Below, one piece after another: positions 11,732 to 43,784 of a stretch of DNA of 46,713 nucleotides. The stretch is from sequence record SRR2962707_2686; one strand, written 5' to 3'. The notes below the pieces were generated by a model. It saw only the letters and a program-made list of their open reading frames with translations. It ran no database searches and was not told the origin of the DNA. The position numbers and the translations under genes were made by a program. The first letter of the stretch is position 1, and each line of letters begins with the position of its first letter.

Positions 11732-13930
11732 ATGGAAATCAAGGTCAACTTCCTCGACAACCTTCGCCTGGAAGCCAAGTTCGACGACTTCACCGTCGTC
11801 ACGGATCAGCCGATCCGCTACAAGGGTGACGGCTCGGCGCCGAGCCCGTTCGACTACTTCCTGGCATCGTCGGCACTGTGCGCGGCTTACTTCGTCAAGG
11901 TGTACTGCAAGGCGCGGGATATCCCCACGGACAATATCCGCTTGTCGCAGAACAACATCGTCGACCCGGAGAACCGCTATAACCAGATCTTCCGTATTCA
12001 GGTGGAGCTGCCGGAGGACATCTCCGACAAGGACCGGCAGGGTATTCTGCGCTCCATCGACCGCTGTACGGTGAAGAAGGTGGTACAGACTGGGCCGGAG
12101 TTCCAGATCGAGACAGTGGAGAATCTGGACGAGGATGCCCAGGCGTTGCTGATGGGCGCGCCCGAAGGGGAGGCGCGCACTTATATCGAGGGCAAGGACC
12201 GGCCATTGGAGGAAACCATCGCCACCATGACCGGCATCCTCGAGGCGCTGGGCATGAAGATCGAGATCGCCTCGTGGCGCAATATCGTGCCCCATGTGTG
12301 GTCGCTGCACATCCGTGACGCGGCCTCGCCGATGTGTTTCACCAACGGCAAGGGCGCCACCAAGGAGAGCGCCTTGTGCTCGGCCCTGGGGGAGTTCATC
12401 GAGCGGCTGAACTGCAACTTTTTCTACAATGATCAGTTCTTCGGTGAGGAGATCGCCAACAGCGCCTTCGTGCATTACCCGAACGAGCGCTGGTTCCAGC
12501 CCGGCCCTGATGATGAACTGCCCGAAGGCATTCTGGATGAGCACTGCCTGGCCATCTATGACCCCGAAGGTGAACTGCGCGGCTCCAATCTGATTGACAC
12601 CAATTCCGGCAAGGTGGAGCGGGGAATTTGTTCGCTGCCATTTCAGCGCCGTTCGGATGGCGAGACGGTCTGGTTCCCCTCCAATCTGATCGAGAACTTG
12701 TTTCTCAGTAACGGCATGAGCGCCGGCAATACCTTGCCCGAAGCGCAGGTGCAGTGTTTGTCGGAGATCTTCGAGCGGGCGGTGAAGAAGCAGATCATCG
12801 AGGAAGAGCTGGCCCTGCCGGACGTGCCGCCAGAGGTACTGGCGAAGTATCCGAATCTGGTGGAGGGTGTCGAGGCATTGGAAGCCCAGGGCTTCCCGGT
12901 GCTGGTCAAGGACGCTTCCCTGGGCGGCCAATTCCCGGTGGCCTGCGTGGCGCTGATGAATCCACGCACCGGCGGCGTATTCGTTTCTTTCGGCGCGCAT
13001 CCGAGCATGGCTGTGGCACTGGAGCGCAGTCTTACCGAATTACTGCAAGGCCGCAGTTTCGAGGGGCTCAACGATGTGCCGCCGCCCACGTTCAACAGTC
13101 TGGCGGTAACCGAGCCCAACAATTACGTGGAGCACTTCATCGATTCCACTGGTGTGGTGTCCTGGCGTTTCTTCAGCGCCAAGGCGGATTACGACTTCCA
13201 CGAATGGGACTTTTCCGGCAGCGCTTCAAACAATAATGAAGAAGAGGCGACTGGCCTGTTCCGGATTCTCGAAGATATGGGGCATGAAGTGTACACGGCG
13301 GTATACGAAGACCTGGGCGCGCCGGTTTGCCGGATTCTGGTGCCCGGTTACTCCGAGGTGTACCCGGTGGACGATTTGATCTGGGACAACACCAACAAGG
13401 CCCTGGACTATCGGGAAGATATCCTGAATCTGCATAGCCTGAATGACGATCAACTGGCCGATCTGGTGTGGCGCCTGGAAGAAAGTCAGATCGACGACTA
13501 CACCGACATCATCACCCTGATCGGCATCGAGTTCGATGAAAACACCGTCTGGGGTCAGCTCACGGTTCTGGAGCTGAAGTTGCTGATCAGTCTGGCCCTG
13601 GGACAGCACGAGGATGCCCTGGAGCGGGTGGAGGCCTTCCTGCAGTACAACGACAATACCGTGGAGCGTAATCTGTTCTATCGTGCGGTCAGCGCCGTGC
13701 TGGAGATTACTCTGGACGAGGAACTGGAATTGAACGATTACCTGGTGAGCCTGCGGCGTATGTATGGTGAGGACACCATGAGTAGTGTGGTTGGTGCGGT
13801 CGATGGCACCGTTCGCTTCCCTGGTTTGACGCCCACCAACATGCAGCTGGATGGCCTGGACAAGCACCTGCGCCTGATCGAGAGCTATAAAAAGCTCCAT
13901 GCGGCGCGGGCGGTGAAGGCAAATCTTTGA
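11732..13930 (+). CDS. OsmC-domain / YcaO-domain fusion protein
   Basis: N-terminal OsmC (DQP...PSPFDYFLAS..LC...RC); YcaO motifs TNGKG, SALGEFIER, SNGMSAGN and EIFER. Confidence 0.9.
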   Translation: MEIKVNFLDNLRLEAKFDDFTVVTDQPIRYKGDGSAPSPFDYFLASSALCAAYFVKVYCKARDIPTDNIRLSQNNIVDPENRYNQIFRIQVELPEDISDKDRQGILRSIDRCTVKKVVQTGPEFQIETVENLDEDAQALLMGAPEGEARTYIEGKDRPLEETIATMTGILEALGMKIEIASWRNIVPHVWSLHIRDAASPMCFTNGKGATKESALCSALGEFIERLNCNFFYNDQFFGEEIANSAFVHYPNERWFQPGPDDELPEGILDEHCLAIYDPEGELRGSNLIDTNSGKVERGICSLPFQRRSDGETVWFPSNLIENLFLSNGMSAGNTLPEAQVQCLSEIFERAVKKQIIEEELALPDVPPEVLAKYPNLVEGVEALEAQGFPVLVKDASLGGQFPVACVALMNPRTGGVFVSFGAHPSMAVALERSLTELLQGRSFEGLNDVPPPTFNSLAVTEPNNYVEHFIDSTGVVSWRFFSAKADYDFHEWDFSGSASNNNEEEATGLFRILEDMGHEVYTAVYEDLGAPVCRILVPGYSEVYPVDDLIWDNTNKALDYREDILNLHSLNDDQLADLVWRLEESQIDDYTDIITLIGIEFDENTVWGQLTVLELKLLISLALGQHEDALERVEAFLQYNDNTVERNLFYRAVSAVLEITLDEELELNDYLVSLRRMYGEDTMSSVVGAVDGTVRFPGLTPTNMQLDGLDKHLRLIESYKKLHAARAVKANL

Positions 13931-13947: not shown

Positions 13948-14205
13948 ATGGAATACGATGATCAAAAGGTGCTGGAAACGGTGCTTGCCTTACTTGGCGT
14001 ATTTGAGTTTGACAATGGCAGGGTTTGGAAGAGGATTGAATTCAGCGTCATGGATGAACTTTTTGAGAAAGGATATATCTCCAATCCAACAGGGCGAGCA
14101 GAGTCCGTCTATTTGACAAAAGAGGGCTTCGCTCTGGCTAAAGAGCTTGCGGAGAAGCACTTTTCAAAGAGTTATGAAGGAGATGCGGAGTGCAAACCAA
14201 GGTGA
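13948..14205 (+). CDS. DUF6429-like small protein
   Basis: VLALL...RVWK...VMDELFEKGYISNP..RAESVYLTKEG pattern. Confidence 0.7.
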   Translation: MEYDDQKVLETVLALLGVFEFDNGRVWKRIEFSVMDELFEKGYISNPTGRAESVYLTKEGFALAKELAEKHFSKSYEGDAECKPR

Positions 14206-14570
14206 TCAACGAAGGGAATAAAATCCCGATCAAGAAAAAGTAGCGGCAACCTCTGATCAATACAGAAGGTGGCTATAATGAGGTCGGCGGTCTTTCGTAT
14301 GGTGATCCCTTTCTTGCGCAAAGCGCGATAATTCTCGGCACACTTTACGGCCATCTCCATACCGAGCATCTCGTACTGATCCAGTGTCGTTAGTAATTGC
14401 TTGGTCCTGCGATAGTCCCGATCATCGCGGATGCCCTGTAGAATCTCCAGAAGTATCAGGTCACCGATGGCAACGGTGCCTTCGGTAATGGCCGAATCCA
14501 AGGCGTCAGTGTGGCTGTTCTCCGCACCGTTGAAATAGTCGATCCAGACACTGGTATCCACCAGTATCAT
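14172..14570 (-). CDS. vapC: PIN-domain VapC toxin
   Basis: MILVDTSVWIDY...EILQG...D.IIA...LLFLDRDF; ATGA overlap with the antitoxin gene. Confidence 0.9.
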   Translation of the reverse strand: MILVDTSVWIDYFNGAENSHTDALDSAITEGTVAIGDLILLEILQGIRDDRDYRRTKQLLTTLDQYEMLGMEMAVKCAENYRALRKKGITIRKTADLIIATFCIDQRLPLLFLDRDFIPFVDHLGLHSASPS

Positions 14571-14761
14571 TTCGCGCCCCGCATCTGATCCAGGTCCCCT
14601 TCCCATTGGACCTTGCCGCGTAACTTGCGGAGTTCCTGTTGGCGATTCAGACGGACCAGCAGCTTCAGCCCTTGTTCAACGGCTTCTTTCTTGGTTTCGC
14701 AGCCGGAGGCTTTCAGGGCCTCCGCCATCAATTTGTCGTCTATGACAATATTTGTTCTCAT
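14567..14761 (-). CDS. vapB: VapB antitoxin
   Basis: MRTNIVIDDKLMAEA...TKKEAVEQGL...WEGDLDQMR; directly upstream of vapC. Confidence 0.9.
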   Translation of the reverse strand: MRTNIVIDDKLMAEALKASGCETKKEAVEQGLKLLVRLNRQQELRKLRGKVQWEGDLDQMRGAK

Positions 14762-14773
14762 GGATATCACCTA

Positions 14774-14800
14774 TGTGTATAAAAATAGAATTTGTACACA
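14774..14800. promoter_or_regulatory. Palindromic operator upstream of vapBC
   Basis: TGTGTATAAA-7nt-TTTGTACACA imperfect inverted repeat in the AT-rich region upstream of vapB. Confidence 0.55.
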
Positions 14801-14970
14801 ATCTAACATGGGCAAGGGTACCTGACAATCCCATCAGCGCGGTGGTGGCCGCCCACTGGGTTGTGGCTCAAGAAGGAGGATTTCAGCCCGCTGTCGATTC
14901 CCAATGTTCCCGTTCGACTATGCCAGTAACCCAGAAAGATTGTCGAGTTTGCGAATCGATGGAGCTGACA

Positions 14971-15597
14971 ATGATCAAGTTGTACGGAACACCCCCGACC
15001 CGTGCTCTGCGTGCTATCTGGTTGCTTAATGAACTGGGCCTGGAGTACCAGATGCTCCCGGTGGATATTCTGAAGGGCGAGACCCGGGAACCGGACTTTC
15101 TCGCCCTTAACCCCGCCGGGAAGGCCCCTGTTCTGGTGGACGGCGATCTGGTGATCACCGAGTCGTCCGCAATCCAGCTTTACCTCGCTGATAAATATTC
15201 CCAGGCTGGTTTTATCCCGGAGACCGTGGAGGACAGGGCGAAGATGTACCGTTGGATCTTTTTCCTGGCTACCGAAATCGAACAGCCGTTGTGGCGTATC
15301 GCTCGTCATACCTTCTTGTACCCGGAAGAGAAACAGCTACCCCAGGATGTGGATCTGGCGAGGCAGGAGTGCCTGGAGATGCTGGCCGTGCTCGAGCAGC
15401 ACATGAAGACGCATGAGTTCATGGTCGCCGACCGGCTCAGCGTGGCCGACTTCAACGCCGCCTATACTTTGGACTGGGCCAACGAAGAGAAGATGCTGGG
15501 CGATATGCCGAGATTGACCGAATACCTGAAGGCCATGTACTCCCGGCCCGCCGCCCCGCCGTCCATTTCCGGAGTGCTTGCGGCCCCGGGAAGTTAG
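14971..15597 (+). CDS. Glutathione S-transferase family protein
   Basis: TRALRAIWLLNEL, LNPAGKAP, ITESSAI and SVADF. Confidence 0.9.
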   Translation: MIKLYGTPPTRALRAIWLLNELGLEYQMLPVDILKGETREPDFLALNPAGKAPVLVDGDLVITESSAIQLYLADKYSQAGFIPETVEDRAKMYRWIFFLATEIEQPLWRIARHTFLYPEEKQLPQDVDLARQECLEMLAVLEQHMKTHEFMVADRLSVADFNAAYTLDWANEEKMLGDMPRLTEYLKAMYSRPAAPPSISGVLAAPGS

Positions 15598-19680: not shown

Positions 19681-20520
19681 TTACCCGCCCTGTCGCTCCG
19701 ATAGCCGTTCTTCCAGCGTGCCCAGGCGTTTTTCCATTGTTCTCAGAAGGTCCAGCATCTCCTGCCGTTCATCATGAGCGCGCTGGTTCTCCCGCTCCCT
19801 TTCCTCCCGCAGTTCCATGTCGTGTACCTCCTGGGTGGCGTTGACAATGATGGCGATGAACAGGTTCAGCACCATGAAACTGGAGATAAGAATGAAGGGG
19901 ACAAAGAAGATCCAGGCATGGGGGAATTGCTCGATCACCGGACGGGCGATGCCCATGGACCAGCTTTCCAGGGTCATGATCTGAAACAGGGTATAGATAC
20001 TGGCGCCCAGAGTGCCAAACCATTCCGGGAATGCCTCGCCGAACAGTTCCGTACCCATTACTCCGAAGATGTAGAACATCATCAGCAGCAGGGCCGCGGT
20101 CCAGCCGATGCCGGGCAGCGAGTGCATAAGGGATTCCACCAGCATGCGCAGCCGTTTTACCGTGGACAGGAGCCGCAGTACCCGGAGGATGCGAAGGCTG
20201 CGCAGGATCGCCAACTGACCGGAGGTGGGAGCCAGGGAGAGGCCGATGATGAGAAAATCGAAAAGATTCCAGCCGGAGCGGAAGAAGCGGGGGCCGAAGG
20301 CGGTCAGCTTGATCAGAATCTCCGCCACGAACACCGCCAGGATGATGCTGTTGAGCAGTGCCAGTAACCCGCCGGCGGCTTCTTCCGCGGCGGCGGAAGT
20401 CTCCACCCCCAGAACGATGGCATTGAGGAGGATCAGGGCGGTAATGAAGTGCCGCACTGGCGCTGATTCGATCCACTCTCCCAGCCGTTGGCGCCAACTG
20501 TTCAAGACAAGCGTTGTCAT
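19681..20520 (-). CDS. Bacterial voltage-gated sodium channel (BacNav-type ion transporter)
   Basis: Six TM segments; S4 RSLRILRVLR; selectivity filter TLESWSM; LNLFIAIIV gate; C-terminal coiled coil. Confidence 0.92.
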   Translation of the reverse strand: MTTLVLNSWRQRLGEWIESAPVRHFITALILLNAIVLGVETSAAAEEAAGGLLALLNSIILAVFVAEILIKLTAFGPRFFRSGWNLFDFLIIGLSLAPTSGQLAILRSLRILRVLRLLSTVKRLRMLVESLMHSLPGIGWTAALLLMMFYIFGVMGTELFGEAFPEWFGTLGASIYTLFQIMTLESWSMGIARPVIEQFPHAWIFFVPFILISSFMVLNLFIAIIVNATQEVHDMELREERERENQRAHDERQEMLDLLRTMEKRLGTLEERLSERQGG

Positions 20521-23057: not shown

Positions 23058-23424
23058 TCGGCCTGGCTGCGATCCAGAGATTCGTGCACTTCCGAGACGG
23101 CTTTGTCCCTTATCGCGCCGATTTACGGATATGAGCGACTCATCGGCTTCCTGTACTACGATCTGCCGTTGAATGGCGGGGACGGACCTGGCCGCGAGCT
23201 TTCGTCTTGAAAGCGTCGATGACGCGCTGAGTGTCATTCTGGAAGAGATCCATGTGCTCTAGATGGAGATCAGCGATGGCCGGAGCGGGAGCGATGCTGT
23301 CTGGTGGCGTTGGCACGGCAAAGCATCGGGCAGGATCAGGCAAGGGGGATGCCTTGCCGTTCGCCTGGGTTTATGTTGGCATGCTACACGTCAACTGACC
23401 TTGGCTAATCGTGAGAGCGTTCCA

Positions 23425-24294
23425 ATGACCGACGACACCTATACACCTCCGAAAGTCTGGCAATGGGAGCCCGGCAACGGCGGTAAGTTCGCCAACATCA
23501 ACCGGCCCATCGCTGGTGCCACCCATGACAAAGAACTGCCGGTGGGCAAGCACCCATTGCAGCTTTACTCCCTGGCTACGCCCAATGGCGTCAAGGTCAC
23601 GGTAATGCTGGAGGAATTGCTGGCTCTTGGCCATACCGGGGCTGAGTATGACGCCTGGTTGATCAATATCGGTGAAGGCGATCAATTCGGCAGCGGCTTC
23701 GTGGAAATCAATCCGAATTCCAAGATTCCCGCCATGGTGGATCACAGCGTGGACCCGCCGCAGCGTGTTTTTGAAACCGCCTCCATTGTCCTGTATTTGG
23801 CGGAGAAATTCGGCGCTCTGATACCCAAGGAGCACGGGGCCCGCACCGAGTGTATGAACTGGCTGTTCTGGCAGCAGGGCGCGGCGCCTTTCCTGGGCGG
23901 TGGTTTCGGCCACTTTTATGCCTATGCCCCGGAGAAGTATCGCTATCCCATCGATCGCTACACCATGGAAGTGAAACGCCAGCTCGACGTGTTGGATCGC
24001 CACCTGGCGGAGAACACTTATCTGGCCGGTGATGAATATTCCATCGCTGATGTGGCCACCTGGCCCTGGTACGGACAGTTGGTATTGGGACGTTTGTACG
24101 ACGCCGCTGAATTCCTGGATGTGACGTCCTACAAGAATGTGACCCGTTGGGCCAACGAAATTGACGCTCGCCCGGCGGTGAGCCGTGGCCGTATGGTGAA
24201 CCGGACTTTTGGCAAGCCCGAAACCCAGCTCCGAGAGCGTCATGACGCCAGCGATTTCGATACGCGCACCCAGGATAAGCTTGAGGCGTCCTGA
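23425..24294 (+). CDS. yghU: Glutathione-dependent disulfide-bond oxidoreductase YghU
   Basis: YTPPKVW...FANINRPIAG, YSLATPNGVKV and LRERHDASDF. Confidence 0.9.
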   Translation: MTDDTYTPPKVWQWEPGNGGKFANINRPIAGATHDKELPVGKHPLQLYSLATPNGVKVTVMLEELLALGHTGAEYDAWLINIGEGDQFGSGFVEINPNSKIPAMVDHSVDPPQRVFETASIVLYLAEKFGALIPKEHGARTECMNWLFWQQGAAPFLGGGFGHFYAYAPEKYRYPIDRYTMEVKRQLDVLDRHLAENTYLAGDEYSIADVATWPWYGQLVLGRLYDAAEFLDVTSYKNVTRWANEIDARPAVSRGRMVNRTFGKPETQLRERHDASDFDTRTQDKLEAS

Positions 24295-24633: not shown

Positions 24634-24895
24634 AGTCCATTGCAAATAAAGTGCACCGTGAGACCCTGTATGCGGTGCCTGTTGGCAGCGGGGTTTACGT
24701 CATGGCTTCTTTAAACCCTGTATTGGATAGAAAGGCGCATATTATCGTGGACAACAACGAGGTGGACAGGCCGTTTATCGTCAAATGGGATGATCGTTCA
24801 CTGGATTGAAAGGGGCATGTGTGACCCTGGCAAGGTAAAAAATCCAATCCCCACGTCGCTTGGCGTGGTCAGTCGCTCCCCAGGAGGGAACGGAT

Positions 24896-25459
24896 ATGTC
24901 TCTTTCAGTGAATACGCTGGGTGAAATACGGGCCCTGGTGCGCGGTGGGTTCGATGAGCGTGATGACATCATCGGAATCCTGTGTGAGGAGATGTATGAA
25001 CCGGGAGAGCTGGACGAGCAGGCGGTGGAGCAGGCCGTGGACGCTGCTTTCAGTGAATTGGAGCATGAAAAACGCCAATGGCCGGCGGTAACGGATTGCG
25101 ACCGTTTGGAGCAGGCGTTCCTGGCGCTCAATAAGCGGGGTGTGATTGCCTTGCATAATGCCGGGTACACGCAGGATGACGGCTATGCCGACGTTCAGGA
25201 GGTGTTCTCTGAACACCCTGAGCAGGACGGCGTTAGCGGCTACTGCTTTTACCACGGTCAGGATCTGGAATGCGTGGTATCCGGCGGTGGTCTATATCTG
25301 GCCTTTGGCCCCATGGACCCGGTGCATGAAGAGACGGAGGGGCCAGTGGTGGGCACGCTGATTGTCGAGGAACTCACCAAAGCCGGCCTGGATGTGCAAT
25401 GGGATGGTACCTTCGCCCATCGTATCTTCATTCCCGATATGGATTGGCAGCGCCGCTAA
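24896..25459 (+). CDS. DUF6891-like hypothetical protein
   Basis: WP.VTDCDRL..AF..L...G, GYCFYHGQD and WDGT...RI; GGAGG RBS. Confidence 0.7.
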   Translation: MSLSVNTLGEIRALVRGGFDERDDIIGILCEEMYEPGELDEQAVEQAVDAAFSELEHEKRQWPAVTDCDRLEQAFLALNKRGVIALHNAGYTQDDGYADVQEVFSEHPEQDGVSGYCFYHGQDLECVVSGGGLYLAFGPMDPVHEETEGPVVGTLIVEELTKAGLDVQWDGTFAHRIFIPDMDWQRR

Positions 25460-25470
25460 GCCAGCGCGTG

Positions 25471-25857
25471 TTACTGCCATTTGCTTTCGATGGGAGTGCC
25501 CCGTCCCACGGTCTTGGTCACCGGGGTTTTGGCGGCGATCTCCAGTAGCCGCTGCCGTTGCTCGTCGGTCAGCTCTCTGCTGCAGGACAGGGTCCGGTCG
25601 ATAAACTCGTTGCCGTCTTCGCCGCGACGGAAGTGCAGATGCACGCTGATTTCTCCCAGATCCCAGCCCTTGCGGTCGGCGTACATGCGCAGGGTAATGG
25701 AGGTACAGGCACCCAGGCCGGAGAGCAGCAGTTCGTAGGGATTGGGGCCGCTGTCCTCTCCACCCAGATCGGCGCCCTCATCGGCCTGAAGGCGATGGTG
25801 GCGGGCGTGGATATGCTGCTGGTAGTGGGTGTCGCTGTATACCGATACCTTGGCCAT
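25471..25857 (-). CDS. OsmC family protein
   Basis: ADE...GG.DSGPNPYELLLSGLGACTSITLRMYA; the second Cys position reads KTPV. Confidence 0.88.
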   Translation of the reverse strand: MAKVSVYSDTHYQQHIHARHHRLQADEGADLGGEDSGPNPYELLLSGLGACTSITLRMYADRKGWDLGEISVHLHFRRGEDGNEFIDRTLSCSRELTDEQRQRLLEIAAKTPVTKTVGRGTPIESKWQ

Positions 25858-25970
25858 TGCGGTCTCCTTGGCGAGGGGCGAACAGAGTTCATACTGTGCC
25901 ACACCCATGCCGGTATCGGGAATGCCCCTCGCCGTTGGAATCCTGTCTCCGTCGGGAGGGGCGGTCTGAA

Positions 25971-26603
25971 TCAGACTGCGTGGGAGGCCAGATCATTATC
26001 GATTTGCCGTGCCTTGATGGCCGCGGGGCGCTCCATCAGATTGGCGCAGTAGCGTTCGAATACCGGCCGCTTTTCAATGGCGCCGACAGCCATCTCGTAA
26101 CCCAGGTAAGCGCCAGCGAGCAGGTCGGCGGCGGTGAATCGCTTTCCAACCAGGTAATCGCGCCAGCGTAGTTCGTTTTCCAGCGTATTCAGTACCCGGT
26201 CCAGCGTGCCGTATCCGGCGGTGGCCGCCTTCTCGGCATCGTTGCCGATCTCGAAACCCAGCACATGGTTGGTGCAGGCGGCATCGAACGGGCCGGCGAT
26301 GAAAAACAGCCAACGATAGTAAGCGCCCCGCTCCCGGCTGGTCGGAGCCGGTGCCAGTCCGGCTTGCGGGAAGGCATCGGCCAGATAGGCGCAGATCGCC
26401 GAGACTTCGGTGACAACGGTGTCGCCGTGCACCAGGGCGGGTACCTTCCCCATCGGGTTGATCGCCAGATAGTCCGCGTCTCTCATCCCCAAACCGAACG
26501 ACAAAACATGAGTGCGGTAGGGCTGATTTACTTCTTCAAGCATCCACCGCGCCACCCGCGCCCGAGACATGGGATTGGTATAGAAAACCAGATCCTGACT
26601 CAT
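25971..26603 (-). CDS. Glutathione S-transferase family protein
   Basis: YTNPMSRAR..RWMLEE, INPMGKVP and FTAADL. Confidence 0.9.
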   Translation of the reverse strand: MSQDLVFYTNPMSRARVARWMLEEVNQPYRTHVLSFGLGMRDADYLAINPMGKVPALVHGDTVVTEVSAICAYLADAFPQAGLAPAPTSRERGAYYRWLFFIAGPFDAACTNHVLGFEIGNDAEKAATAGYGTLDRVLNTLENELRWRDYLVGKRFTAADLLAGAYLGYEMAVGAIEKRPVFERYCANLMERPAAIKARQIDNDLASHAV

Positions 26604-26691
26604 GCAATCCTCTCCGTGTCGTTATTGATTGGAAGAGGAGTGTAAGAGTGTCTCCTGTCAGATAATGGCAGCAGTGTTGCCGGACGGGGCG

Positions 26692-27435
26692 TCAGCCCTT
26701 CTTCGCCACTTTCTCCAGCGCCAGCAGGGTATCCATGTAACTGACGAAGTGGCTCAGATAGTCCGGTGACAGGCCGCGCAGGGTTTCGACGCTGCGGGTA
26801 ACCAGGCGGTGTGCGTTGAGCGGGCCGGCGTCGCCGGGTGTCTGGGCGATGGCGTGGTCGATGCGTTTTTGGGTATGCAGGCGGGCGCGGGTGGCGCGCA
26901 GCTGGCGCAGGGCCTTGAGTTCCCGCGGCGATGTCAGGGGACGGATGTCGCGAGGCCCCTTGCCGGCGACCTTCTGAAACAGGTTGGGATGGTCTCTTAG
27001 CAGGGAATCCAAAGGGGTGTTGTCGGCGTCTTCGTCGTCGATATCGTTGTTTTGCAGTGCCTCCAGCAATGCCACCAGCGGTGACGGTGATCTCCGTACC
27101 TGCTGCTCGGCGAGGCGCTGGAAGGCGCGCAGGTCACCGCTTTCGAACAGATGATCCAGCTGTGCCTGTGTCGTGTCGTCGAGAGTGTCATAAGGCAAAG
27201 CGGCGCGTCGTGCCCGGGCCGCCTCCCGCGCTTCTTCGAAGCGTGTTTGATAGTCCGTCAGTGCTTGCTGCAATTTGTCCTGCTGAGCCGGTGTTGGCGC
27301 GCGCGGGCTTTCCGCCAGCCGTCGCGCCAGCGCTTCCAGATAACGGAAGCGCACCGGATCGTAGCGGTCGGCGCGGTCGTCACGTAACCGGGCAAGGCGG
27401 TCCAGAGGCGTGGGGGCCGAATTGACGTCACTCAT
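26692..27435 (-). CDS. DUF2894-like protein (Zorya type III accessory, ZorG-like)
   Basis: DPVRFRYLEALARR, AGPLN..RLV and LSPDYL.HF.SY.DTL; last gene of the operon. Confidence 0.75.
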   Translation of the reverse strand: MSDVNSAPTPLDRLARLRDDRADRYDPVRFRYLEALARRLAESPRAPTPAQQDKLQQALTDYQTRFEEAREAARARRAALPYDTLDDTTQAQLDHLFESGDLRAFQRLAEQQVRRSPSPLVALLEALQNNDIDDEDADNTPLDSLLRDHPNLFQKVAGKGPRDIRPLTSPRELKALRQLRATRARLHTQKRIDHAIAQTPGDAGPLNAHRLVTRSVETLRGLSPDYLSHFVSYMDTLLALEKVAKKG

Positions 27436-28069
27436 CGTTCTCTGCCTGATTGCTCTGGCGCGGTACGGTGGTGATCTCCACCCGGCGGTTCTGGGCGCGG
27501 GAAGCCTCGCTCTGGTTTGGAACCACCGGCTGGTTATCGCCGAAAGCGGCGGCGAAGATGCGATCCGCCGGCATGCCCTGGGCGATCAGGGTGCGGGTGA
27601 CGGTGAGCGCTCTCTGTGCTGAGAGTCCCCAGTTGTCCTGATAACGCGGATTTCCTTTCTGGATTGCCAGGTCGTCGGTGAAGCCGCTCACCATCAGCAA
27701 CTCATCATGCTCGCTGAGATAATTCCGCAGCGGTTCCACCAGGCTGCTCAGCAATTTTTCGCCCTTGGGTTGCAGGACATCGGAATTGAGCGCGAACAGC
27801 ACACTTCCGCTGATGCCGATGCGGCCGTTATGGAAAGTGATGCGACCGCTGGAGAGGGGATCCCGCAGGGCGTCTTCCAGGGCGATACGGCGCTGTTCCT
27901 CCACTTGGCGGCGGGCTTTTTCCTGTTGCAGGGACTGGCTCAGCTCCAGCTGGATGCCGATCACCCACACCGTGATCAGCACAAAGATGCCCACCAGTGC
28001 CGCCATCAGATCGGAGAAGATGGCCCATACCGGCGTGGCCTGGGCCTGGCTGTCGTGCAGCTCGTCCAT
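27428..28069 (-). CDS. zorB: ZorB-like MotB/OmpA-domain protein
   Basis: N-terminal TM WAIFSDLM with the conserved Asp; OmpA motifs GFTD, NWGLSAQRA and NRRVEI. Confidence 0.8.
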   Translation of the reverse strand: MDELHDSQAQATPVWAIFSDLMAALVGIFVLITVWVIGIQLELSQSLQQEKARRQVEEQRRIALEDALRDPLSSGRITFHNGRIGISGSVLFALNSDVLQPKGEKLLSSLVEPLRNYLSEHDELLMVSGFTDDLAIQKGNPRYQDNWGLSAQRALTVTRTLIAQGMPADRIFAAAFGDNQPVVPNQSEASRAQNRRVEITTVPRQSNQAENDE

Positions 28070-30588
28070 CAGCCGGCTCCGTTGCCGTTGGTGGCCGACT
28101 GCTGGCGCACGGCGCCAAGCGCCTCAAGCACATCCTTCTGCGAGGTCATGCTCAGGTCGATGACTTCACGGGCTTGCTCCACATAGTAAGCCAGTTGTTC
28201 GTCGCTGCGTGCGGTGGCCTGTTCCAGCGCGGTTTCCACCCGCTGAAGATGATCCACCAGCTTGTCATTGGCGTCGCTGAACAGCTGCACGGCGACGGAG
28301 AACGCCTCGCTGAGGCTGGCCACTTCATGGGCGCCGCCGGTGACGTCCGACGTCACTTCATCCAGCTTGCGGCTTTGTTCGTCCACCTGCTGCGAAAAGG
28401 CGTCGCTGACGGTTTTGAGGATATCTCCGGAATCGCGGATCAGGCTTTCCACCGCCTCGCGTTGGGCGGCGGCGGTTTCACGCTGGGCGGCCAGCAGGGT
28501 TTCCAGCTCCGCCATGATACGCCGGCGCTCCTCCAGCATTTCGTTGTCGCGTTCACTGCCGCGGGCCATCTCCTCGCGCAGCTGGCTGATCACTTCGGCG
28601 GCGGCCTTGGGCGTCTCCGAAGCGGTTTCGATCAGTCTCGTCATGGGCGCTTCCAGAGCCGCGCCCAGGTCGCCGAGATGGCGGGTAACCGTGGTTTCCA
28701 GTTCGGCCAGCCGCGCGGTGGCGGTTTCGCCGCGCCGGGCTTCTTCATCGCGCAGCGCGGACAGGGCCTCGCCAGTATCCGCTATCAGTTTCTCCAGGCC
28801 GCCGCGCTGTTGCGCTATAAGCGTCTCGGCGGCGTTCTGGAATTGCGCATTGTGGCTTTGCAGTGTCTGGGTGATGTTCTCAATCAGGCCCGCGGCGGAA
28901 CGCTGCTGTTGATTCAGGCCGTGGCGCCAATGTTCGGCGGTTTGCTCGGTGGTGGCCTGGAAGCGCTCGGCCAGTGTCGCCAACTGCTGCTCGCCGGTGT
29001 TTTGCAGCTGCTGGTGGTGCTCGCGAGTCTGCTCCAGCAATGCAGTGCTATGTTGGTGGAAAGTGTCGTTGTGGTCCTTCAGGGTGGCGCCAAGGGTCTC
29101 CGCCAGGTGGGCGTTGGTTTGCTGCTGCTGGTTCAGGCCATCTCGCCACAGTTCCGCCGCTTGCTCGGTGGTGGTCTGGAAGCGCTCGGCCAGCGCCGTC
29201 AATTGCGTCTCACCGGCCCGCTGCAAATGCTGATGATGCTCTTTCGCCTGAGCCAGCAGAAGTTCGCTTTGTTCACGGAAGCGTTCGCTATGCGCCCGCA
29301 GCGCTTCGGCTACTTGTTCCGTCAACTGGCGGCTGTGTTGTTGCTGTTCGCCAAGACCGGATTGCCAGACCCGGGCGGCCTGCTCGGTGGTGGCCTGGAA
29401 GTGTTCGGCCAGTTCCGATAATTGTTGCTTGCCCGTTTCGCGCAGTTGCTGATGGTGCTCCCGCGTCTGTGCCAGCAGTTCGCTGCTGTGTTGTTCGAAG
29501 CGGCTGTTGTGCGCCTTGAGCGCGGCGTCGATATCGGCGGCCAGTTTGGCGCTGGTCTGTTGTTGCTCGGCAAGCCCCTGGCGCCAATGCAAGGCGGCTT
29601 GTTCGGTGGTGCTCTGGAAGCGTTCCGCCAGGGCGCCGAGTTGGCGCTCGCTGATCTCGCTGAGCGCTTGGTGGGTGCTTTCCGCCTGCTGCCCAAGGCG
29701 GGCCATGGCCACTTCCACGATCGGGCGGGTGCTCTCCGCCGCGATGCGGCCGCTGTCCGCCAGACTTTGTTTCAGGGTCTCGCTGACCGAACGGGCCAGT
29801 TGTTGGTAGTGGCCGCTGACATTGTCGTGGAATTGCTGCTGGTTTTGCGTCAAGGCACCGCTGACCTGCTCGCTCATGTGTTCCATGCGTTCGGCAAGAT
29901 GACCCAGTTGGGCGACCACTTCGGGGAAGGCGGCGGACTGCTCCCGCAACGCCTGGTAAGTGTCGCGCTGTTGCTGGCCGATCGAGAAGGCACGCAGTTC
30001 CGTGGCGATATGACCGTCCAGCTCGCGGCCGGCCACAATCCGGTCACGGCGGCTCAGGGCGGCGGCCAGACCCAGCATGGCGGAGCTGGCGACACCGGCG
30101 ATGGAAGTGCCGAACGCCAGACTCATGCCGCTGATCGGCGCGGCCAGCGCATTACGGATGGCGTGCAGCTCGCTGCCGCCTTCCAGGGCGGTAACGGCAC
30201 CGCGCAGAGTCACGATCATGCCGATGAAGGTGCCGAGCAGGCCGAGCATGACCAGCAGCCCGGAGAGGTAAGGGGTCAGCATCGGGCCGGGCAGGGCAGC
30301 CGGTTCCCCTTCCACCCGGCGGCGTACCGTGCCGCGCAGGGAGGCCGGCAGGCCGGCGAGCCACTGACTCAGGCTTTCCGGGCTGCCCGGCAGTTGCCCC
30401 AGGCTCTGGCGCATTTGATCGGTGGCGCGGCGAAACTGCCGCAGTTCCAGAAAGCCCAGCCCATAGACCAGCGCGATCAGCAAGGTGGCGGTCAGCGCCA
30501 CCAGGTCGGTGCCGAGAAAGCCCAGGCCCACCCAGATCACCGTGATGGCGCCCAGAATGAAGGTCAGCGCGAAAAGAAAACGTGTCAT
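28069..30588 (-). CDS. zorA: ZorA-like MotA-domain protein with long repetitive helical tail (DUF802-like)
   Basis: TM region with LVMLGLLGTFIGM and AFGTSIAG; >600-aa Q/E/A-rich tail; ATG at 30588 overlaps the upstream stop. Confidence 0.8.
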   Translation of the reverse strand: MTRFLFALTFILGAITVIWVGLGFLGTDLVALTATLLIALVYGLGFLELRQFRRATDQMRQSLGQLPGSPESLSQWLAGLPASLRGTVRRRVEGEPAALPGPMLTPYLSGLLVMLGLLGTFIGMIVTLRGAVTALEGGSELHAIRNALAAPISGMSLAFGTSIAGVASSAMLGLAAALSRRDRIVAGRELDGHIATELRAFSIGQQQRDTYQALREQSAAFPEVVAQLGHLAERMEHMSEQVSGALTQNQQQFHDNVSGHYQQLARSVSETLKQSLADSGRIAAESTRPIVEVAMARLGQQAESTHQALSEISERQLGALAERFQSTTEQAALHWRQGLAEQQQTSAKLAADIDAALKAHNSRFEQHSSELLAQTREHHQQLRETGKQQLSELAEHFQATTEQAARVWQSGLGEQQQHSRQLTEQVAEALRAHSERFREQSELLLAQAKEHHQHLQRAGETQLTALAERFQTTTEQAAELWRDGLNQQQQTNAHLAETLGATLKDHNDTFHQHSTALLEQTREHHQQLQNTGEQQLATLAERFQATTEQTAEHWRHGLNQQQRSAAGLIENITQTLQSHNAQFQNAAETLIAQQRGGLEKLIADTGEALSALRDEEARRGETATARLAELETTVTRHLGDLGAALEAPMTRLIETASETPKAAAEVISQLREEMARGSERDNEMLEERRRIMAELETLLAAQRETAAAQREAVESLIRDSGDILKTVSDAFSQQVDEQSRKLDEVTSDVTGGAHEVASLSEAFSVAVQLFSDANDKLVDHLQRVETALEQATARSDEQLAYYVEQAREVIDLSMTSQKDVLEALGAVRQQSATNGNGAG
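28800..29646 (-). repeat. Four tandem 219-bp (73-aa) repeats within zorA
   Basis: Motif LAE(R/H)FQxTTEQxAxxWxxGLxxQQ recurs every 219 bp (near 28944, 29163, 29382, 29601). Confidence 0.9.
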
Positions 30589-31346
30589 TGCGGGAGTGGT
30601 TCCTCGTGATTCAATGCGTCCAGCAGGCCTTGCACCGGTTCCAACCGGGTTTCCAGCTCGGCCAGCAGCAACGTCTGCATTTCCTGTCGAAACTGGTGTA
30701 ACCAGCCCCCCGGCGCCACCCAGGCGTCGGCCGGATCGGGCTGATCTTCCGGTTGTTGATTGCGGTGCGCCCGCCAAAGAGAGCGAAAGCGTTTGCCCAG
30801 CACCATCGGTATGGCGGCGAAGCAGTAACGGCCATAGCTGGCCAGAGTGTTGTCGAACACCGTGTCGAGCACGGCGAGCTGGGCGAGAGTGTGATTCTGG
30901 GCGGCGAAGCCGTCACGCAGGCGTTGCCGCAGATACTGGATGGCGGTGATCAGCTGTCTCTGATGAGACAGGTAAAAACGTTCATAGGGTTTGAACACCG
31001 GTGGCGTTTCGACGGTCCGCGGCAGCCGCAGCTTCACCTTGGCCTCGCCGGGATCGAAACTCAGCGTGATGCCGCTGATGAGGGTATCACGGGTCTGGTT
31101 GAAGTCCGCCCGGAGACGTTCCGTCAGACCTTCTTCGGGGCGGAATGGCCCCATGGACTGGTACTTATAGGCGGCGTCCAGCGCAATGGTATCGGACAGG
31201 TCAAACAACCGGCCCATGCGCTCCGCGAAGCAGGCGTGAGCATCAAGGCCGGTGCCGTTGCCCAGTGCGGCCACCAGCTGTACCAGTCGGGCGCTGGGAG
31301 GAGCCGGTTGCGCTTTTTTTTGCGTCCTGTGCGTGTTGTTGCTCAT
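30585..31346 (-). CDS. DUF3348-like protein (Zorya type III accessory, ZorF-like)
   Basis: F.PY.R.Y..HQR, LAQLAVLD and W...FRQEMQ.LLLAEL..RL.PV.GL..AL; first gene of the operon. Confidence 0.75.
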   Translation of the reverse strand: MSNNTHRTQKKAQPAPPSARLVQLVAALGNGTGLDAHACFAERMGRLFDLSDTIALDAAYKYQSMGPFRPEEGLTERLRADFNQTRDTLISGITLSFDPGEAKVKLRLPRTVETPPVFKPYERFYLSHQRQLITAIQYLRQRLRDGFAAQNHTLAQLAVLDTVFDNTLASYGRYCFAAIPMVLGKRFRSLWRAHRNQQPEDQPDPADAWVAPGGWLHQFRQEMQTLLLAELETRLEPVQGLLDALNHEEPLPQ

Positions 31347-31467
31347 GGGCCGCCGTGGCTAGGAAAAAGGTATGACCATGCCGTCGCCTGATGCGACGGG
31401 AAACCGCCCATTCTAATCAACTGCGGCGGCCCCACCAATCCTGCGGATGCCTGAGTCGGGTTGGCGG

Positions 31468-32679
31468 TCAGCCGGGATCGTTGGCGGCGGGCATGCTAAC
31501 CACGCCCTGGGCCCGCAGAGCGTCGATAGCACTATCGGTGAAGCCGGCTTCCCTGAGCACGGCCCGGCTGTCATTGCCGAGGCGCGGCGCCGGCCGATCC
31601 GGTTGCGTCGGGGCATTGATGAAGCGCAACGGGTGGCGGGTGGCGAGCAGCTTCCCTTCGCTGGGGTGATCCACCTGTTGAAAGAAGCCCACCGCGCGTA
31701 AATGGGGGTCGGCGAGCAGGTCTTCCAGCGTATTTACCGGGCCGCAAGGGATATCCCGTTCCTTCAGCGCGGTCAGCCAGTACTGGTTGTCATGAGATGG
31801 CATGCACTCCGCCACGACCTGATACAGCTCGCCGATGCGCTCGCTGCGGCGGGCCGGATGCATGACCCATTCCGCTCTGGCCAGATCGTCCCGGCCCACC
31901 AGGTCGAGAAAGCGTTGCCAGTGACGGGAAGTATAGGGCAGTACCGCGATATAGCCGTCGGCGGTTTGATAGGGGCGCCGGTAGGGCGTCATCAGGCGGT
32001 CGTAGCGCAATGATCCCCGCGGTGGTTCGAAGACGTGGCCAGCAAGGTGTTCGGCCAGCAGGAAGGAAACCAGGCTTTCGAACATCGGCGCTTCCACCGC
32101 ACCGCCCTGGCCGGTGCGTTCCCTCTGCAACAGAGCCGCGGCGATTCCGACGGTGGCGTACAGGCCGGCTACCTTGTCCGCCAGGACCGTGGGGGCGAAG
32201 GCCGGAGGTAAGTCGGGTGTGTGGTTCAGCGAAGCCAGTCCGCTGATTGCCTGCATGATGTCGTCGTAGGCCGGGTCGTCGGCGTAAGGGCCGTCGCCAC
32301 CGAATCCGACCGCGGCGCAATATACCAGGCGTGGATTGAGCGGGCCGAGAGTGTCGTGGTCGATCCCCAGTTTTCTGGCCGCGGCTGGGCGGATGTTGTG
32401 CAACAGCACATCCGCCCTGGCCACCAGTTTGTGCAGCGTGGCCTGCCCCTGAGCGGTTTTCAGATCCAGCACCAGCGACCGTTTATTGCGGTTCAGATTG
32501 AGAAAGCCGGCGCCCATGCCCGGGTGCCGGGCCGGTGCGGCGGCGCGAAAAATATCTCCCTCCGGTGATTCCACTTTGATGACCTCGGCGCCCAGGTCGG
32601 CAAGAAGCTGGGAAGCGAAAGGGCCCAGCACCACGGTGCTCAGATCCAGCACCGTTATGCCTTTAAGCAACTCGAACAT
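31468..32679 (-). CDS. CaiB/BaiF family CoA transferase
   Basis: GPFASQLLADLGAEVIKVE, NRNKRS and AYDDIMQA.SG. Confidence 0.92.
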   Translation of the reverse strand: MFELLKGITVLDLSTVVLGPFASQLLADLGAEVIKVESPEGDIFRAAAPARHPGMGAGFLNLNRNKRSLVLDLKTAQGQATLHKLVARADVLLHNIRPAAARKLGIDHDTLGPLNPRLVYCAAVGFGGDGPYADDPAYDDIMQAISGLASLNHTPDLPPAFAPTVLADKVAGLYATVGIAAALLQRERTGQGGAVEAPMFESLVSFLLAEHLAGHVFEPPRGSLRYDRLMTPYRRPYQTADGYIAVLPYTSRHWQRFLDLVGRDDLARAEWVMHPARRSERIGELYQVVAECMPSHDNQYWLTALKERDIPCGPVNTLEDLLADPHLRAVGFFQQVDHPSEGKLLATRHPLRFINAPTQPDRPAPRLGNDSRAVLREAGFTDSAIDALRAQGVVSMPAANDPG

Positions 32680-32799
32680 GGCATTTCCTCACTGCATTGC
32701 CGATGTTCGGAAGGCGCCTTCATCGTCATCGGCGGGGATGATTTTTTTATTCAGTCTTGCATGGTGAGGCTTATTCGTGCAACGCTATTTTGAATCAAA

Positions 32800-40546: not shown

Positions 40547-41707
40547 CTAGGGCCAATTCCACCTGGGGGTATTCAGTAGTCCCTGGCCCATGATGCGGGT
40601 TTCCCCAAGTTCTTTTTCCAATTCCACGCCATGGCAGTCCGGTGCCTGATTGAGAGCCGCCACCAGGCGTCTGGCATGGCTGATCACCCACACCTGACTG
40701 TGGCGGCTGGCGCGGGCAATCAATCGCGCCAGGGCCGGGAGCAGATCCGGATGCAGGCTGTTTTCCGGTTCGTTCAGAACCATCAGTGAGGGCGGCCGTG
40801 GTGTCAGCAAGGCCGCGATCAGAAGCAGATAACGCAGTGTGCCATCGGACAGCTCCGCCGCTGTCAGCGGACGGAGCAGGCCGTACTGGTGGAAGGCGAT
40901 CTTGAGCCGGCCGTCGTCCAGGGGAACGATGGCCAGGCGCGCGCCGGGAAAGGCATCCTCGATGGCACTGTCGAGCGCCCGGGCATCGCCGATTTCCCGA
41001 ATGGTTTGCAGGGCCGCCGCCAGATCGCGCCCGTCGTGATGCAGCACGGGGGTACGGGTGCCCAGCTGGACCTGCCGGGCGGGGGCGTCCTGATCGGTGC
41101 GAAAGTGGTCGTAGAAGCGCCAACCGCGAATCCGCTCGCGCAGGGTGACCACCTCTGGTGTGGTGCGGGCGTCGGCCACCTGACTGAACAGGCTGTCGAA
41201 GCTGTTGAGGTGTTCGCTGATAACCTGCCAGGGGCCTTCTCCCCGGGTTTTCACCAGCGGGCCGCGGCGATCCACCAGCGCCGTGGCCGGACGATAGCCG
41301 GAGCCGGCCCAGATCAGTTCCCGTTTGATCTCCGGGTCCAGATTGAAGGCGGTGGTGGCGTCCGGTTTCGGCAGACCCAGCTCGATCAGATAGCCATAGT
41401 CCTCATCGTTGAATCCGAGACGCAGGCGGCGGCTGTGCTGGCGAGGCCCGCCCTGCACCGGCACCGAGCCGTTGCGCATGCCTTTGGTGAGGGTCTCCGG
41501 TCCAGCCCAGAACGTGGATTCCAGCCCGCCCTCGGCGGCCAGGGCGGCGATCACGTCGTCACGCGCGGTGGCGGCCAGCAACCGCAGGGCGCGGTACAGA
41601 TTGGATTTGCCGCTGCCGTTGGCGCCGGTGACCACATTCAGGGGCCCCAGCGGCACGGTCAGATTCAGAACGGAACGGTAGTTGCCAATGGCCAGCGTGG
41701 TCAGCAT
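40547..41707 (-). CDS. Predicted ABC/SMC-type AAA ATPase (COG4637-like)
   Basis: Walker A GANGSGKS; signature LSDGT; Walker B VLNEPE; H-loop ISH. Confidence 0.88.
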   Translation of the reverse strand: MLTTLAIGNYRSVLNLTVPLGPLNVVTGANGSGKSNLYRALRLLAATARDDVIAALAAEGGLESTFWAGPETLTKGMRNGSVPVQGGPRQHSRRLRLGFNDEDYGYLIELGLPKPDATTAFNLDPEIKRELIWAGSGYRPATALVDRRGPLVKTRGEGPWQVISEHLNSFDSLFSQVADARTTPEVVTLRERIRGWRFYDHFRTDQDAPARQVQLGTRTPVLHHDGRDLAAALQTIREIGDARALDSAIEDAFPGARLAIVPLDDGRLKIAFHQYGLLRPLTAAELSDGTLRYLLLIAALLTPRPPSLMVLNEPENSLHPDLLPALARLIARASRHSQVWVISHARRLVAALNQAPDCHGVELEKELGETRIMGQGLLNTPRWNWP

Positions 41708-41819
41708 GCCGGACGGTTCCTGGTAGCGGGGAGAGGCCAGTAAAAGGGAATCCCGGCGCTGATTCAAGGCGGTGGCAGCGGGCCTTCCGCATCATTGGCG
41801 CCGTGCTATGCTGGCGCCC

Positions 41820-43088: not shown

Positions 43089-43784
43089 TTATTCGTTGGT
43101 CGCGGTTTGGTTCTGGCCGAACAGGACTCGTTTGGCGTCGTCGGACATGGTGCTCTGGCGCAGCGTCTTGCCCACCGCCAGGCCTTTTTGCAGGGCTTCG
43201 CGGCCCCGCAACTGCGAGAACCAGCGTGCTACGTTGGGGAAGTCGTCCAGTGTGATGCCCTGGGCTTTGTGGGTCATCACCCAGGGAAAGATAGCCATGT
43301 CGGCGATGGAATAGTCGCCGGCCACGCAAGGGGCGTCAGCAAGGGCCTGATCCAGCACGCCGTAGAGGCGCCGGGCTTCGCGGCCGTAGCGGTCAATGGC
43401 GTAGGGTACCTTTTCCGGTGCGTATAACAGGAAATGCCCGTTTTGACCCAGCATTGGGCCCAAGCCGCCCATTTGCCACATCAGCCACTGTTTGACCCGA
43501 TAGCGTCCACGCAGGTCCGCGGGCAGGAAGCGGCCACTCTTCTCGGCCAGATACTCCAGGATGGCTCCGCTTTCGAAAAGGGAAACCGGCTCGCCGCCAT
43601 CCTCCGGCGCATGATCCACCAGTGCCGGCATCCGGCCATTGGGGCTGAGGGCGAGAAACGTGGGATCGAATTGCTCTCCCTTGCCGATATTGACCGGCAC
43701 GATGCGGTAAGGCAGCCCGCACTCCTCCAGCATGATGGTGATTTTCCAGCCATTGGGGGTGGGCCAGTAGTACAGGTCAAGCAC
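43089..43784 (-). CDS. Glutathione S-transferase (YfcG-like)
   Basis: LYYWPTPNGWKI, SPNGRMPA and WQMGGLGPMLGQ. Confidence 0.88.
   Translation of the reverse strand: MLDLYYWPTPNGWKITIMLEECGLPYRIVPVNIGKGEQFDPTFLALSPNGRMPALVDHAPEDGGEPVSLFESGAILEYLAEKSGRFLPADLRGRYRVKQWLMWQMGGLGPMLGQNGHFLLYAPEKVPYAIDRYGREARRLYGVLDQALADAPCVAGDYSIADMAIFPWVMTHKAQGITLDDFPNVARWFSQLRGREALQKGLAVGKTLRQSTMSDDAKRVLFGQNQTATNE

Follow-up and report, generated by a model that had tools for sequence, protein, structure and literature searches.

An apparently lineage-core Zorya type III operon with a modular ZorA tail in an Alloalcanivorax xenomutans-like genome

The window analysed here, a stretch of 46,713 nucleotides (SRR2962707_2686), carries four adjacent genes on the minus strand, with overlapping start and stop codons and no internal stops. 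The first encodes a DUF3348 protein of 253 residues (30585..31346; ORF 31346-30585). It is followed by zorA3 (28069..30588), whose product of 839 residues, counted from the ATG (the ORF-calling tool extends the frame to an upstream TTG), has a MotA-like membrane head and a long helical cytoplasmic tail, and by zorB3 (27428..28069), coding for 213 residues with one transmembrane helix, which holds Asp20, and an OmpA-like peptidoglycan-binding domain. The last gene (26692..27435) encodes a DUF2894 protein of 247 residues, comprising a dispensable N-terminal helical domain, a variable linker and a conserved C-terminal domain. A preliminary description had placed the gene junctions at an ATGA (30585-30588), a TGATG (28067-28071) and an 8-bp overlap (27428-27435), and all three are found there, the last as ATGAGTGA.

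Each of the four products has its best PADLOC match among the type III Zorya models (ZorG3 2e-104, ZorA3 5e-268, ZorB3 2e-105 and ZorF3 2e-54), and for ZorA the best type I model reaches 2e-11, against 5e-268 for type III. The Pfam matches are DUF3348 (E 2e-84), DUF802 (E 1e-49, in four stretches), OmpA (E 4e-17) and DUF2894 (E 3e-60). Together they bear out both the families first read from the sequence (DUF3348, long-tailed MotA-like, MotB/OmpA and DUF2894) and the suggestion that these form an intact type III system. By its gene content, the locus is almost certainly an intact, canonical Zorya type III system; as such it is a further copy of an already known system, one among thousands catalogued. 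Since the labels ZorF and ZorG are reversed between PADLOC-DB (DUF3348 is ZorG3, DUF2894 is ZorF3) and the text of Payne et al. (DUF3348 is ZorF, DUF2894 is ZorG), the domain names are preferred here. The genome holding the operon appears to be close to Alloalcanivorax xenomutans: ZorB is 100% identical to that of an A. xenomutans record (L006), and the operon region is 98.6% identical to the same record over 12.3 kb.

For comparison, 111 operons were assembled from 42 complete loci of the host family and 69 loci of three other groups. ZorB W15, F18, D20, D132, R153, R191, R195 and R196 are invariant in all 111, as are ZorA T120, T161 and S162. D20 lies within the WAIFSDLM motif, where a conserved transmembrane aspartate had been recognised beforehand. 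The TM2-TM3 region of ZorA aligns to the solved ZorA structure 8vvn (E 0.0017), and by this alignment ZorB D20 and ZorA T120/T161/S162 would match the essential D26 and the filter residues T147/S184 of E. coli ZorAB. Because these residues are invariant and their E. coli counterparts are essential or filter-forming, the motor is very likely functional. It would presumably rotate, with a ZorA5B2 (5:2) stoichiometry.

The ZorA tail appears to be built from a fixed head and a conserved tip, linked by a spacer of variable length. In this copy the spacer (28816..29691, minus strand; residues ~300-591) consists of four tandem 73-residue DUF802 repeats, with a self-identity of 0.40 at lag 73 and 0.39 at lag 146. 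The 43 ZorA proteins measured in the host family have spacers of 91, 164, 237 or 310 residues, plus 80, 215 and 226, and so differ by steps of 73 and 11. Four repeats are the maximum among them, common to three close relatives; yet one protein (from genome G027) with a head and tip 96% identical to this ZorA has three. The 73-residue unit could be read as six hendecads and one heptad, a pattern consistent with a right-handed coiled coil in which each unit is ~11 nm long. Across the 111 operons the distance between P289 and P660, which encloses the spacer, ranges from 94 to 415 residues, whereas S162 and P289 lie 127 residues apart in 98 operons, and P660 and Y801 141 residues apart in 109.

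The tip (28099..28671, minus strand; residues 640-830) contains residues conserved at 95% or more, many of them polar or aromatic (R680, D681, E687, R688 and R794-E808). Its dN/dS, summed with a custom counting script over 15 close pairs picked from the tree, some of them non-independent, is the lowest within ZorA (0.078, compared with 0.097 for the motor head and 0.179 for the spacer). This is the pattern expected of a binding site. Fixed in length and seemingly as constrained as the motor head, the tip is therefore a candidate docking site.

What might dock there? The AlphaFold2 model of the DUF3348 protein is a confident bundle of helices only (pLDDT 88.8, pTM 0.84), and that of the DUF2894 protein is also all-helical, albeit loosely packed and uncertain (pLDDT 75.5, pTM 0.46). 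Neither protein has a transmembrane segment (maximum hydropathy 0.93 and 0.68). The two show no detectable relationship to one another (hhalign probability 0.4%). In DUF3348, Q129, R144, D161, E230 and R234 are invariant across the 111 operons and could form a site. The N-terminal domain of DUF2894 was detected in 99 of the 111, so the core of this protein is the C-terminal domain with its GP-x-N and P-x-Y motifs. Natural minimal versions, intact operons whose DUF2894 is without the N-terminal domain, are L196, L197, L202 and L205-L207 (genus g132), L161 and L185.

Among the families listed, fold searches gave generic answers. For DUF3348 the best match is a designed protein (Z 8.7, rmsd 6.5, 152 aligned residues), followed by MxB and dynamin stalks at Z 7-8, a range that the search tool labels a common arrangement. 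For DUF2894 the best match (Z 7.8, rmsd 7.9, 135 aligned residues) is a generic helical bundle, in a search that barely probed the C-terminal domain. Foldseek returned no match at E 0.001 for DUF3348 and none for DUF2894, and PDB sequence searches, the ESM Atlas and PHROGs gave nothing usable for the operon proteins. Complex prediction without custom alignments (three ZorA tips, DUF2894 118-245 and DUF3348) scored 0.60, and a control in which ZorA was replaced and both DUF chains were kept scored 0.81, a pair of scores that favours neither reading. HNH, PD-(D/E)xK and P-loop folds require strands. Because the models are all-helical and soluble, both proteins are probably non-enzymatic, and we judge it fairly likely that they are partners sitting on the ZorA tail tip. 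Against this, all-helical enzymes exist, DUF3348 has invariant charged and polar residues, and the DUF2894 model is the uncertain one. Effector fusions were sought among the longer DUF3348 forms, three singletons, and none was found, which is weak evidence; we take all three to be frameshift artefacts with garbled ends, two running into a ZorA head and the third doing the same by eye.

The operon seems to contain no recognisable enzyme for attacking phage, and judging by models and sequence neither DUF partner resembles a nuclease. The absence of an adjacent nuclease or helicase, claimed at the outset, extends further: zorC (EH signature), zorD (helicase-nuclease) and the zorE HNH nuclease are absent from the operon and from the 50 other ORFs scanned in the window, and the EH signature was not found in the nearest genome (G001). 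Three of these 50 ORFs match PADLOC models (a partial match to a methyltransferase, a weak one to an HTH protein, and an ATPase at 40547-41767, ~9 kb off), and none is a Zorya effector or a neighbour of the operon. The ATPase (AAA_21, minus strand) matches HEC-01A (E 2e-51), and a similar one adjoins the Zorya III operon of locus L071.

As first described, the operon is flanked by a glutathione S-transferase (GST) gene (25971-26603) and a CoA-transferase III gene (31468-32679). Most members of the genus also have a GST gene directly downstream. The other 50 ORFs are for the most part metabolic, transport or glutathione-related; the window has four GST genes in all (14752-15597, 23263-24294, 25971-26603 and 43089-43784), two GFA-family genes and OsmC proteins, among them an OsmC-YcaO fusion of 732 residues (11732-13930, plus strand). 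It also encodes a PIN-domain protein, possibly a VapC-type toxin (14172-14606, minus strand), and an ion transport protein (19681-20520, minus strand; Pfam Ion_trans, E 2e-46), which we take to resemble a bacterial voltage-gated channel. At 1-1512, two ORFs without Pfam or PADLOC matches lie in DNA with a GC content of 0.47-0.52 against about 0.60, and may mark the edge of an acquired segment.

The preliminary description had also stressed that the operon lies outside a defence island. This is true here, but it is nothing peculiar, being the usual state for Zorya III across the compared operons. When up to two genes were taken on each side of the 111 operons, by heuristic gene calls that certainly include spurious ones, 421 ORFs resulted, which fall into 264 clusters. 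One representative per cluster was scanned, and 12 of the 264 match PADLOC at 1e-15, a rate that is purely descriptive because it has no matched background. These are mostly generic (phospholipase D, a kinase, DinG, an ATPase, a methyltransferase), with one strong DpdJ. The genes met most often beside the operon encode a MOFRL enzyme, a BCCT transporter and an MFS transporter. Flanking genes are kept within subclades and differ between them. At strain level there is a deletion directly beside the operon: the 1,024 bp of 31760-32783, in which the upstream CoA-transferase III gene begins and has most of its length, are absent from records L001 and L006; contigs of runs X1, X2 and X4 cover 25466-32748 unbroken. 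Contigs of runs X1-X4 have ~600 other letters each at 24646-24731 and at 25447-25466, small, gene-sized indels downstream of an unchanged operon.

How widely is the system held? In the host family, DUF3348 occurs in 45 of 70 genomes: 19/19 in the genus of the window, 24/24 in a second genus, probably Alcanivorax, 2/8 in a third (g5) and 0/19 across six others. The matches in the 43 genomes of the first two genera have no internal stops, and DUF3348 is single-copy except in G015, which has a second, identical-scoring match. In this Zorya III differs from most defence systems: none of the sampled species of these two genera, which are related and marine, is without it. As markers of Zorya I, a ZorA1 model and the EH signature of ZorC were used; each occurs in 2 of these 43 genomes and 3 of the 70. 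Genomes G007 (C2:428496-432482) and G029 (C135:11271-15257) carry type I markers alongside type III. All four genes stand in the same order in 42 of the 45 family loci, and the other three end at contig edges.

Class-wide, DUF3348 is rare (6 of 401 genomes) but clumped. It was found in 83 of 250 genomes of family f15, where three genera score 10/10 and others 0/10 (one genome unscored), in 66 of 80 of genus g132 and in 9 of 19 of genus g171. From the 158 positives outside the host family, 69 loci were fetched (40/83 from f15, 20/66 from g132 and 9/9 from g171), and in all 69 the four genes are ordered on one strand; 66 passed a gap limit of 150 bp and three missed it by 1-7 bp. Searches with tblastn gave no Zorya III match in 50,697 phage records and matches in 164 of 72,556 plasmid records, of which at least 65, all of the matches listed, are replicons of 0.37-3.2 Mb.

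Descent of the operon appears mostly vertical, judged by one marker, gyrB. For the 41 genomes that supplied gyrB and the complete operon, the tree of the concatenated Zorya genes has 23 of 38 splits in common with the gyrB DNA tree (patristic r 0.79), and the ceiling, set by the gyrB protein tree, is 27 splits (r 0.88). Three of 29 well-supported splits conflict, one of them grouping G003 with the other genus. A recent horizontal gain is unsupported, as the GC content of the operon (0.637) is like that of neighbouring 1-kb windows (0.61-0.65) and sister species are syntenic. Summed over the same pairs as above, dN/dS is 0.155 for DUF3348, 0.130 for ZorA, 0.067 for ZorB, 0.228 for DUF2894 and 0.021 for gyrB. 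In four RNA runs of one study the operon lies within contigs of 13-22 kb at flat depth, coverage from which transcription cannot be read; a sigma-70-like promoter was looked for upstream of the genes and not found.

The data themselves show which genes are present, that the motor residues are intact, how the tail is built and how the operon is inherited; the motor mechanism proposed here is carried over from Zorya I and II. By analogy with these types, ZorA5B2 would be a proton-driven motor in the inner membrane, ZorB would engage peptidoglycan when a phage deforms the envelope, and the signal would then travel down the ZorA tail. In type III, the helical DUF3348 and DUF2894 proteins may dock on the conserved tip and gate or couple the motor. 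It is plausible that the output depends on these two proteins, as the preliminary description had proposed. Because the operon holds no nuclease, the output would not be DNA cleavage by its own products; the likeliest outputs would be the recruitment of a host factor or an uncontrolled ion flux that depolarises the infected cell or makes it dormant. Ion flux by itself is a tentative suggestion. In Zorya I and II the motor acts as a sensor and the output comes from nucleases, so the texts consulted offer no direct precedent for an output through a channel.

Is defence the main job? According to the accessible text of Payne et al. (2021; PMC8565338), E. coli gains protection from a type III system of Stenotrophomonas, which, when expressed inducibly, lowers the plating of at least one phage, and ZorF and ZorG are proposed as regulators of ZorAB. 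Phage exposure up-regulates zorG3 and zorF3 in S. maltophilia (bioRxiv 10.64898/2026.01.02.697320, available part), and the first Zorya III genes changed expression during infection of B. cenocepacia (PMC12584637, available part). Alternatively, Zorya III may be a domesticated, lineage-core ion motor with a mainly native role in envelope sensing or upkeep: a peptidoglycan-anchored, energised machine with an adjustable arm (~11 nm per repeat), a fixed docking tip and two adaptors, through which tip and DUF proteins couple the motor to a host process. The anti-phage effect would then be secondary, or a by-product of an over-expressed membrane motor. Genus-wide fixation and vertical descent are indeed unusual for a defence system. 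DUF3348 is stop-free in 19/19 and 24/24 genomes against 2/43 for the Zorya I markers, the phylogeny of the operon tracks that of gyrB with dN/dS of 0.07-0.23, fixation is alike in three genera at 10/10 with another at 66/80, phage records are devoid of matches and the listed plasmid matches are all large replicons. Furthermore, in the sole functional test found, the system was expressed inducibly in a host other than its own (PMC8565338, accessible text). However, that same protection and the induction by phage in S. maltophilia speak for defence, the system is absent from most lineages (6/401 class-wide, 9/19 in g171 and 2/8 in g5), and flanking genes vary between subclades. Coreness alone implies no other job, because core systems make up 13.6% of complete defence systems in one survey (PMC13064858, accessible text). 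We thus regard the domesticated role as possible, though unlikely.

A defence role without cleavage could also take another form: at the tail, the DUF proteins would hold on to phage DNA as it enters, or to ejection proteins, and the rotating motor would trap the genome or reel it in, so that the cell survives. Such reeling has been proposed for Zorya I, according to the part of that literature consulted, DUF3348 has arginines that are invariant or nearly so, and many DUF2894 homologues have basic C-terminal tails. The net charge of both proteins is balanced, however (K+R 29 vs D+E 28 for one and 39 vs 37 for the other), the basic tail of DUF2894 is short in this copy, and the spacer varies more than fourfold in length; we find reeling improbable. 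That one of the DUF proteins is a cryptic all-helical enzyme or a pore-former released by the motor has in its favour the invariant charged residues and compact, confident fold of DUF3348, but is very improbable given that neither protein has a strongly hydrophobic segment, no His or Cys is found among residues conserved at 85% or more in either family, and several intact operons have a DUF2894 protein of which no more than about 100-135 residues align.

On balance, it seems somewhat probable that the locus is an intact, vertically inherited Zorya III system in which a motor works with non-enzymatic tail-tip partners towards an output other than DNA cleavage of its own. If the domesticated role were true instead, a further class of housekeeping MotAB-like motors would now be counted as immunity in defence catalogues. 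The data may narrow the type III mechanism, in that the spacer appears to tolerate changes in length, the tip is fixed, the N-terminal domain of DUF2894 looks dispensable and neither partner is nuclease-like. Two testable questions are sharpened, namely what output Zorya III has and whether it serves mainly for defence, and a harmless marine host with a fixed operon suits the second.

How does the operon compare with what is known? Payne et al. defined type III and counted 6,401 such systems; as far as their available text goes (PMC8565338), the four genes are the same (DUF3348, ZorA, ZorB and DUF2894) and the content does not differ. A literature search lying mostly outside subscription papers and supplements found no mechanistic study of type III, no Zorya report for Alcanivorax or the host family, and no report of genus-level fixation or a repeat-quantised tail for Zorya III. 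In their accessible parts, two papers (PMC11953036, PMC554113) merely mention Zorya III or DUF802, and a 2026 review (PMC13434031) does not mention ZorF or ZorG. Species-level coreness is already published: the survey of highly conserved anti-MGE defence systems (HCADS; PMC13064858, accessible text) names the type III Zorya of R. solanacearum as a species-core system, with only 1.2% of HCADS in defence islands. That survey works within species, whereas here fixation spans whole genera and was checked against the host tree.

Zorya I (ZorABCD) has in common with the operon a MotA/MotB-like motor with the transmembrane Asp and Thr/Ser filter, a peptidoglycan-binding domain and a long helical tail (Hu et al., bioRxiv 10.1101/2023.12.18.572097, available part). 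There, tail deletions abolish defence and a uniform tail length was suggested to be essential, in contrast to the 94-415 residues of the type III spacer in natural, intact operons. The operon differs from type I in having no ZorC or ZorD, and in the genomes where type III is fixed the markers of type I have a patchy distribution. It differs from Zorya II (ZorABE; Mariano et al.) in having no ZorE HNH nickase. The motor core of type II is the same, and the ZorB Asp, peptidoglycan binding and the tail are required there, according to the part of the study available (PMC11890865). Among type III systems, this copy stands out by its four 73-residue tail repeats, the most in the 43 family ZorA proteins, and what is added here is evidence that Zorya III behaves as an operon that is core to its lineages, descends vertically and has a tail of modular build.
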